Assembly: GCA_964510585.1 (NCBI GenBank)
Contig: CAZECW010000004.1
Location: 1-32,000 of the forward strand
Source: an uncultured archaeon
Lineage (GTDB): Archaea; Asgardarchaeota; Jordiarchaeia; Jordiarchaeales; Jordiarchaeaceae
DNA length: 32,000 bases
Direction: 5' to 3'
The notes beneath the pieces are model-generated. The model searched no databases. It saw only the letters and a program-made list of their open reading frames with translations, and was not told where the DNA came from. Each line of letters begins with the position of its first letter. Positions within the stretch are counted from its first letter, which is position 1. Position numbers and translations under genes: made by a program. Of the stretch, positions 10,270-25,040 are shown in pieces.

Positions 10270-10421
10270 ATCCCCTCATTTTTTATTAATTGATAATGAT
10301 ATAAGAGATTTTGCACCCTCCTAATTTTGAGTCTGGGCCTTAGCCAATGATTCCGTAGTCCCGTACCTATATTTTTGGAGGGTTCAATAGAGAAAAGGAG
10401 GAATGGTGCGGAGGACGAGAT

Positions 10422-10452
10422 GTGTTCAGGGGGTAGCAGGCTACCACCGCCT
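10422..10452 (-). other. 31-nt BHB tRNA intron, T-loop position 58/59
   Basis: Central helix GUUC/GAAC with 3-nt bulges AA|A and AC|A, plus an internal hairpin GGUAG/CUACC. Removal restores the T-loop TTCAAAT. Confidence 0.9.
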
Positions 10453-10468
10453 TTGAACTCGTGTAGGC

Positions 10469-10498
10469 CTATGTGAACTCCCAGATAACTGGGGGTTT
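10469..10498 (-). other. 30-nt tRNA intron in the variable-arm loop (GUAG|GCC)
   Basis: Central helix GCGU/ACAU (3 of 4 pairs), bulges AG|A and AG|G, internal hairpin CCCAG/CUGGG. Removal restores the Leu variable arm. Confidence 0.82.
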
Positions 10499-10512
10499 CT
10501 ACGCCACAGGAG

Positions 10513-10543
10513 CTCTGATACGCGAGTGATTGGAAATCGCAAA
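10513..10543 (-). other. 31-nt canonical 37/38 BHB tRNA intron
   Basis: Central helix CUGA/UCAG with bulges GG|U and AG|C, closed by the anticodon stem CAGGA/UCCUG. Confidence 0.93.
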
Positions 10544-10560
10544 CCTCAGTCCTGCTCCAT

Positions 10561-10589
10561 GCCAGTCAAATCCCTGAGGGGACGACATT
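10561..10589 (-). other. About 29-nt D-loop tRNA intron (near 20b/21-21/22; boundaries uncertain by 1-2 nt)
   Basis: The insert must be removed to pair the D-stem TCCG/TGGA. Only a relaxed BHB can be drawn (AGGU/ACUG, 3 of 4 pairs). Confidence 0.75.
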
Positions 10590-10647
10590 TGACCTGGCTC
10601 GGAAACCTCCGCACATATATTGACAAAATAGGATTACACTGAACCAG

Positions 10648-12470: not shown

Positions 12471-12788
12471 TCAAATTCCCTTCAGATAACCATTATCCTC
12501 AAGCCACTTTGCCTGCCCTTTAGAGTATCTCCAAATTATATCCGCCCTGTCATCCTGAAAGTCCCAAGGGGCAACAATGACGACGTCACCTTCTTTGATC
12601 CAGACACGTTTCTTCATTTTTCCTCTTATTCTGCTGAGTCTAACTTTCCCATCGGTGCACTTTACTTGAAGGCGATCGTAGCCCATCATTTTGACCACTA
12701 TTCCAAGAATTTCGCCCTGTCTTGGAGTGCGAACCTTCCTAAATTCGCCTTCGTCTTCTTCTATGAGGTCTTTTTTCTTCGGTGTCAC
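12471..12788 (-). CDS. eif1a: Translation initiation factor aIF-1A
   Basis: RLSRIRGKMKKRVWIKEGDVVIVAPWDFQDDRADIIWRY. Confidence 0.96.
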   Translation of the reverse strand: MTPKKKDLIEEDEGEFRKVRTPRQGEILGIVVKMMGYDRLQVKCTDGKVRLSRIRGKMKKRVWIKEGDVVIVAPWDFQDDRADIIWRYSKGQAKWLEDNGYLKGI

Positions 12789-19949: not shown

Positions 19950-21320
19950 ATGGCACAAACACAAAAAGGAGATAAGTACGAAGTCAAAGACCTAAAACTA
20001 GCACCAGGCGGACGAGCAACAATCGAATGGGCAGAATCAAGAATGCCCGTACTTATGCAAATAAGAAAAAGATTCCAAAAAGAAAAACCACTCAAAAACA
20101 CCATAGTAGGAGCATGCCTCCACGTAACAAAAGAAACAGCGGTACTTGCAAAAACTCTAAAAGCTGGAGGAGCAGAAGTCTACCTTTGCGCCTCAAATCC
20201 CCTATCAACACAAGACCATGTAGCCGCGGCACTAGTAGAAGAAGGAATAAACACATTCGCTTGGAAAGGCATGGACTACGAAGGCTACTACCGAGCAATA
20301 GCCAACGTTATTAAAGGAGAACCGAACATCACACTAGACGACGGCGCCGACCTAGTATCAACCCTAATCAAGCTAAAAAGAGGAGAAACTGGCGAGGAAA
20401 TCAAAATAGTCAAGAAAATTCTCGGAAGCCGTACAGACTGGGCGGACAAAGTATGGGCCGGAGCCGAAGAGACCACAACCGGCGTAATCCGCCTCAGAGC
20501 CATGGCAAAAGATAACGTGCTATTATACCCAATTATAGCTACAAATGATACCCCCACGAAATGGGAAACATAAACACCACCCGTGTTTAAGCCCAAATTT
20601 GACAACTTGTGGGGAACTGGACAAAGCACCATAGACGGTATACTAAGAGCAACAGCAGACCTCATCGCGGGCAAAATTTTTGTAGTTGCAGGATACGGTC
20701 ACTGCGGTAGGGGTGTAGCGCTAAGAGCAAAGGGACTAGGAGCGAGAAGAGTCATCATCTGTGAAATAAATCCCCACCGAGCACTAACAGCCGCCTTAGA
20801 GGGCATGGAAGTAATGCCCATGAGCGAAGCCGCTGAGGTAGGAGACATTTTCGTAACCGCCACGGGATGCAAGAATGTTATAAATGCTGAACATATGAAA
20901 AAGATGAAAAACGGGGCAGTAATGTGTAACACAGGCCACTTTAATGTGGAAATAAATATACCTGATTTGGAAAAAATAAGCGTCAGCAAGAGAGAAATAA
21001 GACCACTAGTCGATGAGTACACACTGGAAGATGGAAGAAAAATCTATCTGCTCGCCCAAGGCAGGCTCGTGAATCTTGCATGTGCCGAAGGACACCCAAG
21101 CGAAGTTATGGACATGAGCTTTTCGGATCAGGCTTTGGCTGTGGAGTGGATTGTTAAGAATAAGGATAAGCTGTCTGGGATGGGTAGTGTGGTTTTGGAT
21201 ATTCCTGAGGAGATTGATAGGACTGTTGCAGAGTTGAAGTGTAAGGCTATGGGTCTTAGATTGGATGTTTTGACCCCAGAACAGGAAGCGTATTTGTCAG
21301 GTTGGGCTGAAGGAACCTAG
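19950..21320 (+). CDS. ahcY: S-adenosylhomocysteine hydrolase, join(19950..20567,20598..21320), 446 aa after splicing
   Basis: [27 protein letters not shown] and LAQGRLVNL. The two ORF-track pieces are in the same frame, and removing 30 nt restores [18 protein letters not shown]. Confidence 0.93.
20568..20597 (+). other. 30-nt BHB intron in ahcY mRNA
   Basis: Central helix UGGG/CCCA, bulges AA|A and AA|U, intron stem UAAACAC/GUGUUUA. Contains an in-frame TAA. Confidence 0.88.
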
Positions 21321-21976: not shown

Positions 21977-21982
21977 GGAGGA
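21977..21982 (+). promoter_or_regulatory. Shine-Dalgarno site of tyrS
   Basis: GGAGGA ends 7 nt before the ATG at 21990, which supports the upstream exon as the true start. Confidence 0.7.
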
Positions 21983-21989
21983 GAATCTG

Positions 21990-23108
21990 ATGGATACTGA
22001 AGAAAAGGTTCAGCGTGTCTTACGTGGCTTGAGTGAAGTTATCACTGTCGAGGATCTACGGAATTTATTTGAGGTAGACAACCACCCTAAGGCTTACATA
22101 GGTGTTGAGCCTTCTGGATAAACCTTTTAGGCTTTCTAGGGTTCCAGAATATTTCATTTGGGCTGGGTGGTTTGGGCTTGGAAGGTTCAGGATTTGATTC
22201 TTTGCGATGTGGATATGCATGTTCTCGAAGCAACTTGGCATGCGAAGATTAACGACAAATTTGGTGGAAACATGAATACCATACACACCTGTGCAAAGTA
22301 CATTGAACACTGTTTACAAGCGTTGGGTGTAGATATTAGCAGGGTTCATTTTCCAAAGGCTGAGGATCTTATGGATAGTTTGGATTATTGGGCGACAGTG
22401 ATAAACATTGCTAAAAACACTACGCTGGCCCGCATTAAGAGAGCTATGAGCATAATGGGCCGCAAAGTAGATGATGCGGAATCTGATTATTCAAAAACAC
22501 TTTATCCTTGCATACAGGTAGCTGACATCTTATACGCCGGTTTTAAGCTGTGTCTGGGCGGAACCGACCAGAGAAGAGCTCACATATTGGCGAGGGAGTT
22601 GGCTCCTAAGTTCGGCTTGGATTGGAAGCCGGTAGCTATTCACACACCTCTCCTCATAGGCCTAGAGGGATTATCAAGGATGGAGTTTGAGGATATGAGC
22701 GAGGATGTTTTAATGGAGGCCAAGATGTCGAAATCCAAACCTCAAACAGCAATTTTTATACATGATAAGCCAGAGGAAATTAGGAGTAAAATTTCTGCTG
22801 CTTTTTGCCCACCGAAACAGGTAGAATTCAATCCAATAATGGAAATAAATAGGCTTCTTCTCTTTTCCAGAGAAGGTTTTACTCTTCATGTAGAACGTGA
22901 GGAAAAATTTGGAGGAGATATAGATTTTGAGAGCTTTGATGAATTGAAATCTGCTTACAGCGCCGGTAATCTTCATCCTCTGGACTTGAAACGGGCTACT
23001 GCGGAGGCCCTCATTGAACTGTTGAAAAATGTTAGGCAACATTTTGAAAAGAATAGTGAAGCCCGTAACCTTTTGGAAACATTAAAAAAGGCTACAGTAA
23101 CCCGGTGA
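21990..23108 (+). CDS. tyrS: Tyrosyl-tRNA synthetase, join(21990..22119,22150..23108), 362 aa after splicing
   Basis: Exon 1 MDTEEKVQRV..KAYIGVEPSG joins to give PSGLFHLGW (HIGH motif). Also YPCIQVADI, GGTDQRRAH and KMSKS. Confidence 0.93.
22120..22149 (+). other. 30-nt BHB intron in tyrS mRNA
   Basis: Central helix CUGG/CCAG, bulges AU|A and AA|U, intron helix AACC/GGUU. The unspliced frame has three stops (TAA, TAG, TAG). Confidence 0.9.
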
Positions 23109-23216
23109 CAAACTTTATCGCGTAGAAGTGTAAGAAAACTTTATTTTGTTCGGCTTTTAACATTGTGTTCAAGAGAGTTTGTCATTTGTTTTCCTTTGCT
23201 GATTGGATGGCTGATT

Positions 23217-23642
23217 ATGCCCTGTAACAATTTGCATGAAGAATTGGAACAGTTTATATCAAAGCTTAGAACAATCTCTGAAAACGGTACCCCCATTATT
23301 GTGGAGGGCTATAAGGATGAGAGAAGCTTAAGAGAACTAGGGGTTCGAGGAATAATTCTTAGATTATCTGGAAGAAAACTCATAGAAGTCGCTGAAGAAC
23401 TTGCCAATTATGAGGATTTCCTGATTCTAACCGACTTTGATCGCAAAGGACAAGATATGGCGCTGCGCCTCTTGAAGTATCTAGATCACCACAAGGCAGA
23501 GTTAACGCTGAGTTTCAGGAGAAGATTTAAAAATTTAACCTCAAAAGTCACCTGCGCCATAGAAGGATTAGCATCCTCATATTTCACTCTTCAAAACCAA
23601 AACAATAAAAACATGGAATTCAAAGTTGAAAAATTCTTTTAA
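23217..23642 (+). CDS. Small stand-alone Toprim domain protein (RNase M5-like/COG1658)
   Basis: IIVEGYKDERSLRELG and LILTDFDRKG. ATG at 23217 preferred. Confidence 0.85.
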   Translation: MPCNNLHEELEQFISKLRTISENGTPIIVEGYKDERSLRELGVRGIILRLSGRKLIEVAEELANYEDFLILTDFDRKGQDMALRLLKYLDHHKAELTLSFRRRFKNLTSKVTCAIEGLASSYFTLQNQNNKNMEFKVEKFF

Positions 23643-23786
23643 TGACAAATGGGAGAAAGACATAATTATATCCGAAAGTACGTTAATGTTGAAAATGGTA
23701 CGTCATTATGTTAAAGCTTAATTAAATAAACAATCACTCTTACAAAATTTCAATCATAACACACTTTTATTACCTTATTTCATTAT

Positions 23787-23794
23787 GGAGGTGA
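23787..23794 (+). promoter_or_regulatory. Shine-Dalgarno site of dnaG
   Basis: GGAGGTGA ends 7 nt before the ATG at 23802. Confidence 0.75.
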
Positions 23795-23801
23795 CGCTTA
23801 T

Positions 23802-25040
23802 ATGGTTAATCGAAATGAGTTTAGCACAACAAAGTACATTATAAAAGCTAAAATAGAAGTAGACGGAGTTGTTGAAAAACCAGACGTTGTGGGAGCAATA
23901 TTTGGACAAACCGAGGGGTTGCTGGGCTCTGAACTTGACCTGCGTGAGCTACAGAGAACTGGGCGAATAGGGAGAATAAAAGTTACAATAGAGTCCCATG
24001 GAGGCAAATCAACGGGAACGGTAATAATTCCCTCAAGCCTTGACAAAGTAGAAACTGCAATGCTAGCAGCTGCTGTGGAATCCGTCGACAGAGTAGGACC
24101 ATGCACTGCTCATGCAACCTTAGAGATAATCGAAGATGTACGAGAGGTTAAAAGAAGAAAGATAGTTCAGAGAGCAGCAGATATTATAAGAAAATGGTCC
24201 GAAGAAGTGTCGCCTGAAAGTCAACAACTCACAGACGAGGTTTTGGATGCAGTTCGAGTAGCTGAAATCACTAAGTACGGTCCTGAAGAACTACCAGCGG
24301 GACCAGCCATAGACAGCTCTGACGATATAATAATAGTTGAAGGGCGGGCGGATGTTCTTAATCTTTTGAGATGCGGCTACAAGAACGTTATAGCGATGGA
24401 AGGAACAAGTATACCAAAGACTATAATCGATCTTAGCAAGAAAAAAACGATCACGGCCTTTCTAGATGGGGATAGGGGAGGAGACCTGATTTTGAAGGAA
24501 TTACAGCAAGTAGCGGATATAGATTATGTGGCCCGCGCCCCTCCAGGAAGGGAAGTTGAAGAACTCACCCAAAAGGAAGTGGTTAAGGCTCTGAGAAACA
24601 GACTGCCTGTAGAGCAATTAGAAGCGGAAGAACCCAAAAAGAAGGAGAAGGAAAAGGAGAAAAGAAAAGAGCAGGAAAAAGAAGAGAAAAAGGAAAGAGG
24701 GTGGGAAGAAAAAAAACCCAAAAGGACTGAAATTCCTCCCAAAATTAAGCTTCCAGAACAGATTCTAAACTACCTGCCTAACATAAAAGCCTCAAATAAG
24801 GCTATACTTTTAGGGAAAAACTTGGAATTAATGGAGGAAATGGATGTATCTTCGTTGGCAGAGCGCCTGAAAGAAGTGGGCTCGGTTAGAGTTATCATTT
24901 TTGATGGAATTATTACTCAGAGGTTGGTAGACCTAGCTCAGGATAAAGGGGTGGAGTATATTTTAGGGGTAAGACAAGAGAATGTTACAAAGAAACCCTT
25001 AAATCTAAAGATTGTAGAGTTCAACGAGGTAATAACTTAA
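23802..25040 (+). CDS. dnaG: Archaeal DnaG (exosome-associated primase-like protein)
   Basis: [39 protein letters not shown] and a charged linker. Confidence 0.96.

Follow-up and report, generated by a model that had tools for sequence, protein, structure and literature searches.

How a functional tyrosyl-tRNA synthetase (TyrRS) can be produced from a tyrS gene whose reading frame is closed just ahead of its catalytic HIGH motif is the question raised by a 32,000-nt stretch of DNA (hereafter the window; contig CAZECW010000004.1 of assembly GCA_964510585.1, positions 1 to 32,000) from an uncultured archaeon of the Jordiarchaeales (Asgardarchaeota). Analysis of the locus indicated that tyrS is, with high probability, a two-exon gene in which a 30-nt insert is a relaxed, HBh'-type archaeal bulge-helix-bulge (BHB) intron that is removed by the endonuclease EndA and the ligase RtcB. 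The insert is real and conserved, and the essential gene that contains it cannot function unless it is removed; that EndA makes the cuts, that RtcB seals the exons and that the intron has any part in regulation is what we infer.

The interrupted reading frame of tyrS

The frame of exon 1 reads MDTEEKVQRVLRGLSEVITVEDLRNLFEVDNHPKAYIGVEPSG and is then closed by in-frame TAA (22119-22121), TAG (22128-22130) and TAG (22137-22139) codons. Past the insert, the same frame resumes (in an unspliced reading as (I)FHLGWVVWAWK...) and runs to a TGA stop, and the longest plain open reading frame (ORF) begins at a TTG at 22158, within the HIGH-equivalent motif. A first-pass annotation, made from the sequence alone, had proposed that an exon led by a Shine-Dalgarno (SD) sequence starts at 21990, upstream of the ORF track that begins at 22158, that it encodes the N-terminus up to YIGVEPSG, and that a 30-nt insert with three in-frame stops follows it. 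All these elements were found in the sequence, with the insert at 22120-22149. Against the NCBIfam TyrRS profile NF006330, exon 1 matched positions 1-43 and exon 2 positions 45-339 (E 1.9e-108). These matches indicated that a single residue is all that tyrS lacks and that about 30 extra bases separate the two matched parts. The insert thus interrupts tyrS one codon ahead of the catalytic HIGH motif, and its removal is obligatory for a functional protein because of the three in-frame stops or, in 31-nt variants found in relatives, a frameshift.

A PF00579 search of the 96%-complete genome returned only tyrS and one gene that NCBIfam identifies as TrpRS; no second tyrS was detected by this search, as needed for the first-pass argument that viability requires splicing if this is the only TyrRS. 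Since the sole tyrS is interrupted by a stop-bearing insert, TyrRS would be made only if its mRNA is spliced.

The organism falls in the Jordarchaeia/Freyarchaeia group, and its closest records were metagenome-assembled genomes (MAGs) of Candidatus Jordarchaeia and Freyarchaeota, Ca. Jordarchaeum madagascariense, and the closed genome CP147778, which bears the same interrupted tyrS. The frame was closed at the same place in all of the five other GTDB species of the genus (5/5) and open, with lengths of 322-403 aa, in 40 more distant Asgard genomes. Nine distinct variants from members of the genus were compared; they came from assemblies made independently of one another, of GTDB species, JGI metagenomes and Logan contigs. 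The insert began after the same base in 9/9 variants and was 30 nt long in five and 31 nt long in four. Because exon 2 is out of frame in the 31-nt variants, stop-codon read-through is excluded, and only removal of the BHB-defined piece restores the frame. An assembly or sequencing artefact, a concern already raised in the first-pass annotation, has nothing further in its favour than the origin of the window from a MAG. It was dismissed outright, as the same insert occurs with natural variation in more than 10 independent assemblies from different studies and habitats, including one closed, long-read-validated genome.

Gene calls reflected the interruption throughout. No full-length close relatives were found among them, and the approximately 50 members of the ten nearest clusters were all 128-347 aa long and N-terminally truncated. 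Deposited Jordarchaeia and Freyarchaeia TyrRS proteins were 302-323 aa long and started within or after the HIGH motif (for example WXG42442.1, which begins with MFHIGW and is without exon 1, and MEM2133779.1 is likewise mis-annotated). Others (336 and 347 aa) had been translated through a 31-nt insert in the wrong frame, and in no case had exon 1 been joined.

Such short gene calls, together with the incompleteness of the MAG (96%), could be taken to mean that tyrS is a pseudogene, or that it is split into a 43-aa peptide and a protein of about 316 aa, with TyrRS function supplied otherwise. Sequence divergence pointed in a different direction. The ratio of nonsynonymous to synonymous differences (pN/pS) was 0.17-0.4 for exon 1 versus about 0.15 for exon 2, at a high pS of 0.3-0.75 between species. 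These values indicate that both exons are under purifying selection as coding sequence at near-saturated synonymous divergence, and that exon 1 is not subject to the decay that had been considered for this copy. In addition, exon 2 has neither a conserved start codon nor an SD sequence (other species have ATA or ATT in place of TTG 22158, and three have GCG in place of GTG 22167), and a protein made from it would miss part of the HIGH motif. With no further tyrS found in the 96%-complete genome, the same interrupted gene in the closed CP147778 and insert ends that are kept better than synonymous sites, a pseudogene or split gene was considered the least credible of the biological alternatives.

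Geometry and conservation of the insert

The core of a BHB motif was found at the borders of the insert (Table 1): a 4-bp helix CUGG/CCAG with two 3-nt bulges on opposite strands, each placed 3' of its helix strand. Next to it, AACC (22121-22124) can pair with GGUU (22140-22143) as the core of an inner helix h' of 4-5 bp, for which 98% of alignment cells were paired. Of the fold proposed in the first-pass annotation, both helices and the bulges were thus recovered. The site has no outer helix and is of the relaxed HBh' type, not the strict hBHBh' type, and its fold is not the thermodynamically preferred one.

Table 1. Coordinates of tyrS and of its predicted splicing motif in the window.
Feature	Position	Strand	Remarks
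SD-like GGAGG	21977..21981	+	8 nt upstream of tyrS ATG; read directly; kept in six aligned species
tyrS exon 1	21990..22119	+	ATG 21990; 43 codons MDTEE...AYIGVEPSG plus first base (U) of junction Leu codon
tyrS intron, BHB-type, 30 nt (AAACC...CCAGAA)	22120..22149	+	Variable loop, constant ends among relatives
tyrS exon 2	22150..23108	+	Last two Leu-codon bases, FHLGW...KMSKS...TVTR; TGA stop 23106-23108
HIGH-equivalent FHLGW of tyrS	22152-22166	+	Read from sequence
KMSKS of tyrS, intact	22722-22736	+	Read from sequence
Central helix, 5' strand CUGG (Ser and Gly codon bases)	22114..22117	+	Invariant in 9 variants
5' bulge A-U-A, predicted EndA cut 22119/22120	22118..22120	+	A[U/C]A in all variants
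Inner intron helix h', 5' strand AACCU	22121..22125	+	Pairs with 22139-22143
Inner intron helix h', 3' strand GGGUU	22139..22143	+	Pairs with 22121-22125
Central helix, 3' strand CCAG, intronic	22144..22147	+	Invariant in 9 variants
3' bulge A-A-U, predicted EndA cut 22149/22150	22148..22150	+	Invariant

A cut after the second base of each bulge yields GGA-UUA-UUU-CAU, which is in frame and free of stops and encodes EPSG-L-FHLGW; the same rule restores the frame in 30-nt and 31-nt variants alike. The predicted exon-exon junction in the window consists of CCTTCTGGAT followed directly by TATTTCATTTGG. The spliced product, YIGVEPSGLFHLGW, matches intronless homologues (Heimdall-type and three metagenomic ones), which read YIGVEPSGLFH[VI]GW, and other intronless homologues (Hermod-type and Acidilobaceae) read EP[ST]GL[MV]H. 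Cuts predicted from structure therefore supply the family-typical Leu, filling the one missing profile position, and the earlier prediction that the join gives the family-typical PSGLFHLGW agreed with the Heimdall-type sequences. Exon 1 ends in either U or C among the variants; this change turns UAA into CAA if the RNA is read unspliced, and after splicing it gives UUA or CUA, which are synonymous codons for Leu. A junction one base upstream (GGA/AUA, encoding Ile) is in frame in all variants; it is disfavoured by the Leu of the homologues and excluded by a joined contig described below.

In the favoured two-exon reading, the exonic CUGG would pair in the pre-mRNA with CCAG at the 3' end of the intron to form the 4-bp central helix, and the intron hairpin (AACCU/GGGUU plus an inner stem) would form the second helix, leaving the AUA and AAU bulges 3' of their helix strands. 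A two-subunit (alpha-beta)2 EndA would then cut both bulges behind their second base (22119/22120 and 22149/22150), and RtcB would join the exons to GGA-UUA-UUU-CAU. Translation of the spliced mRNA would yield a 362-aa TyrRS with EPSG-L-FHLGW. On unspliced mRNA, ribosomes would halt at UAA and release a 43-aa peptide.

Alignment of the nine variants gave the constant string CUGG-A[U/C]A-AA[A/G]CC...GGUU-CCAG-AAU, and between the h' strands a loop whose sequence and length vary. No variation was seen at the third positions of Ser42, Gly43, Leu44 and Phe45, the consecutive codons that form the exonic parts of the motif. Within the first 88 codons, 46 are degenerate and have a constant amino acid; the third position was invariant in only 10 of these, and codons 42-45 account for four of the 10.

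Geometry taken by itself was uninformative. A BHB-like hit at 451-480 (ATTT/AAAT plus GAACC/GGTTC) was rejected as a false positive, since it lies within a gene for a small GTPase (253-789), at the switch II motif DxxGQ. Because perfect BHB-like geometry can fall inside a GTPase motif, geometry alone is no evidence. Another match, at 12702-12731, sits in a junk-looking ORF. Geometry alone would not carry the claim of an intron; its protein-matching position and its conservation lift the tyrS site above chance.

The insert had no sequence-related copies elsewhere in its own genome: a covariance model matched the tyrS site only (next hit, E 0.04), and a pattern search of the window that allowed 3 mismatches likewise returned this site only. 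These searches indicated that the tyrS intron is not a member of a repeated sequence family. A likeness to a tRNA-Leu variable-arm intron (window 10404-10612) was also considered and found no support, as this region shares no sequence similarity with the tyrS intron. ARAGORN called no tRNA in the whole window, and a 42-nt match to BHB geometry lies at 10514-10555.

A joined form of the exons and the candidate splicing machinery

Two hot-spring runs, both labelled metatranscriptomic and probably DNA, were aligned to the locus. Run X1 contained a contig of 1610 nt, at depth 64. Its last 41 bases aligned to window 22150-22190 and are preceded, immediately before 22150, by AGGCCTATATTGGTGTTGAACCTTCTGGAT. 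The contig reads ...GGTGTTGAACCTTCTGGAT directly joined to TATTTCAT at 22150, which corresponds to exon 1-exon 2 at the predicted bond. This joined form, GGAT/TATTT, fits the Leu register and excludes the Ile register. The contig fits the exon flanks of locus L059 (and L084) over about 70 of 71 bases (30-letter loose end and three mismatches in 41 bases), and the DNA of L059 has a 31-nt intron. The hot-spring runs also gave intron-bearing contigs, at a depth of about 10-13. Despite its metatranscriptomic label, the X1 library is probably DNA because its contigs reach 86 kb. No microhomology was found at the borders that would explain so precise a deletion. Whether present as cDNA or as DNA, the junction exists in nature exactly as predicted. 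The far end of the 1610-nt contig falls near the position of an insert in ahcY, the gene directly upstream of tyrS.

These data bear on the idea that the ribosome bypasses the insert by hopping, as in phage T4 gene 60, leaving the mRNA at GGA and skipping the hairpin with the RNA left uncut. As in gene 60, a stop (UAA) directly follows GGA inside an essential coding sequence, in the window and in several relatives, and the piece to be skipped folds into a stable hairpin. Unlike gene 60, the insert of tyrS does not end (CCAGAAUAUUU) in a GGA or GGN codon on which the ribosome could land, and in four variants the codon after GGA is CAA and not a stop. Inserts are 30 or 31 nt long, and landing past them would drop the Leu that is present in all homologues. 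Moreover, geometry and cut sites obey the BHB rule exactly, other genes of this genus and genome have similar inserts, and the exons have been seen joined in a nucleic acid. Bypassing was consequently judged very improbable.

Candidate enzymes for splicing of tyrS mRNA were encoded in the genome. Two EndA paralogues were found: one of 192 aa, which has the Tyr/His/Lys pattern and is closest to the catalytic subunit of the Aeropyrum pernix heterotetramer (3p1z_B, E 2.8e-45), and a more divergent one of 198 aa with no visible catalytic His. Asgard archaea have been reported to have an (alpha-beta)2 EndA with an L1 loop that confers broad specificity (PMC5829648), and relaxed HBh' sites are the class cut by (alpha-beta)2 and epsilon2 endonucleases (PMC5829648, PMC2738675). 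Judged by its sequences, the paralogue pair fits this (alpha-beta)2 type with a specificity-broadening L1 loop. An RtcB gene was also present, and it carries an insert of its own. At rtcB (locus L056:1561-1590; genome G000, contig C58), a 30-nt insert with an in-frame TGA lies inside the PDxH metal-binding motif, with a central helix CCCG/CGGG and bulges ACA and AAG, and its removal gives LPDAHQGYG. All 6 genomes of the genus had an interrupted rtcB; in 7 relatives from outside the genus the gene was intact.

Several observations weigh against removal of the tyrS insert as a BHB intron by EndA and RtcB. An outer exon-exon helix h was not found at the tyrS site, where at most one U-A pair can form and the exon base may be U, C or A. 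Nor does the productive register correspond to the minimum free energy (MFE) structure: in ViennaRNA predictions for 9/9 variants, a slid UCUGGA/UCCAGA helix, which has a single UAA or CAA bulge and no second bulge and would be non-productive, was more stable by 2.2-3.4 kcal/mol, and z-scores of the local fold were modest (-1.6 to -3.6). The 4+4 bp geometry with a 30-nt spacer, restricted to Watson-Crick pairs, occurs 5 times on the + strand of the window, the false positive at 451-480 included. No double-sided compensatory change was seen in the helices of the nine variants, in which 7/9 pairs were fixed and 2 varied on one side (in h', A-U to G-U, and U-G to C-G or U-A); inner loop stems differ among variants yet stay foldable. 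Judging from this alignment, the structure is supported by conservation, not by covariation. The X1 contig may stem from a very close strain that has precisely lost the intron from its genome, and not from cDNA of spliced mRNA. Among the sequencing runs listed for the window and for the Freyarchaeia genome locus, none was an RNA run that contains the locus. Finally, the rtcB on which ligation depends carries an interruption of its own in the genus; the ligase presumed to join the exons would, for this reason, need its own mRNA to be spliced.

Some of these observations, namely a BHB register that is not the MFE, the missing outer helix, the lack of helix covariation and the interrupted RtcB gene, would also suit removal at the RNA level by another pair of nuclease and ligase that recognises the hairpin. 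We know of no other archaeal system that removes pieces of 20-35 nt. The cuts that the protein requires follow the second-bulge-base rule here as well as in four tyrS introns of Thermoproteota with wholly different hairpins. Furthermore, the introns of cbf5, which mostly form unconventional BHBs, are cut by hetero-oligomeric EndA (PMC2738675). Involvement of a different enzyme pair was accordingly rated as improbable, if slightly less so than bypassing, and splicing by EndA and RtcB as the favoured explanation.

Inserts at the same site, in other genes and in other archaea

Thermoproteota, the phylum of an Acidilobaceae MAG, were examined in a small sample of 301 genomes, in several of which the tyrS frame closed just upstream of the HIGH motif. 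Four of these loci were fetched (L096-L099; G282:C11, G288:C70, G159:C4 and G044:C3) and contained inserts of 21, 33, 34 and 33 nt at the identical nucleotide: after UCUGGAU, the first base of the Leu codon that follows E[PC]SG. As in the window, these inserts have the CUGG/CCAG central helix, with CCAG at the intron end, and an AUA 5' bulge, and their splicing gives G-L-[MV]-H. They differ from it in their unrelated intron bodies and hairpins (21-34 nt), and the host TyrRS are only 44-47% identical. In a maximum-likelihood tree, the Jordarchaeia/Freyarchaeia clade was sister to intronless Heimdall- and Hermod-type sequences (98/98), and the Thermoproteota intron clade was placed across a branch with 99/95 support. 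Two histories would fit this distribution: separate gains at a single site, or an ancient intron that was lost many times. It is conceivable, though we regard it as doubtful, that the Ser-Gly-Leu site UCUGGAU/UA is a recurrent landing site of mobile BHB mini-introns, gained independently in Asgard Jordarchaeia/Freyarchaeia and in Thermoproteota. A plausible route would be reverse splicing through pairing of intronic CCAG with exonic CUGG and subsequent fixation where strong conservation leaves the codons no room to drift; in Jordarchaeia/Freyarchaeia the intron would then be part of a genome-wide mRNA-splicing regime that includes rtcB.

Directly upstream of tyrS, two ORFs (19950-20573 and 20583-21320) abut in the profile of ahcY, which encodes adenosylhomocysteinase. 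A short, TAA-bearing insert lies at the conserved TK..KFDN site of this gene (window 20556-20600). Downstream of tyrS, a small Toprim-domain gene is followed by a DnaG-like primase gene (window 23163-25040). A Toprim-domain gene also lies 3' of tyrS in contigs of relatives (loci L084-L091), where part of the gene order is thus kept.

Comparison with known systems showed the tyrS intron to be of the cbf5 kind, not of a separate kind. The pre-mRNA intron of cbf5 in Crenarchaeota was reportedly described by Watanabe in 2002 and Yoshinari in 2006. Like the introns of cbf5 in Aeropyrum, Sulfolobales and Desulfurococcales, the tyrS intron is short, without an ORF, and located within protein-coding sequence, which its stops make dependent on splicing. 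In cbf5, cleavage occurs between the second and third bulge bases of mostly unconventional BHBs, and the boundary lies in the codon for the catalytic Asp (Yokobori 2009, PMC2738675). The tyrS intron likewise lies within a codon of a catalytic motif (the codon before HIGH) and shares with cbf5 the relaxed BHB, the predicted cut between the second and third bulge bases, a host with hetero-oligomeric EndA and a patchy, lineage-specific distribution. Unlike cbf5, tyrS is an aminoacyl-tRNA synthetase gene in an Asgard phylum, and its intron is apparently not alone in its genome, in view of the ahcY and rtcB inserts. Splicing of cbf5 has been proven by cDNA and in vitro cleavage, whereas for tyrS we infer it.

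A second comparison concerns the non-canonical BHB introns of archaeal tRNA genes, which were reportedly described by Marck and Grosjean in 2003. Those of Thermoproteales and of Atabeyarchaeia/Freyarchaeia resemble the tyrS intron in length (approximately 20-35 nt), hairpin, 4-bp helix with 3-nt bulges, HBh' forms and presumed enzymes. They differ in their host RNA: tyrS RNA is an mRNA in which the exonic half of the motif consists of codons, and splicing must keep the frame and precede translation. The lineage stands out for its wealth of such introns: in three complete genomes (two of Atabeyarchaeia and one of Freyarchaeia), they have been found in 92-95% of tRNA genes, in many cases at non-canonical sites and often more than once in a gene (PMC11291895). 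The same study makes no mention of introns in protein genes (PMC11291895). In the literature searched, archaeal BHB introns in coding sequences were documented for cbf5 only, and no paper linked Jordarchaeia/Freyarchaeia or other Asgard archaea to mRNA introns.

The interest of the tyrS intron lies in its host lineage, the essential nature of the gene, the recurrence at one site and the apparent spread through the genome. It exposes a systematic annotation error, as every public TyrRS of the genus is 40-60 residues short, with an incomplete HIGH motif. The same-site introns in a distant clade and the interrupted rtcB make intron mobility, site preference and the dependence of splicing on itself open to testing. 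With tyrS, split protein genes extend to those archaea that are closest to eukaryotes, and the case indicates that a cell's viability can hinge on mRNA splicing by the machinery for tRNA splicing. If a genome-wide mRNA-splicing regime of the kind considered above does exist, the nearest prokaryotic kin of eukaryotes would need their tRNA-splicing machinery to make core enzymes, and this machinery might also tune how much of them is made.

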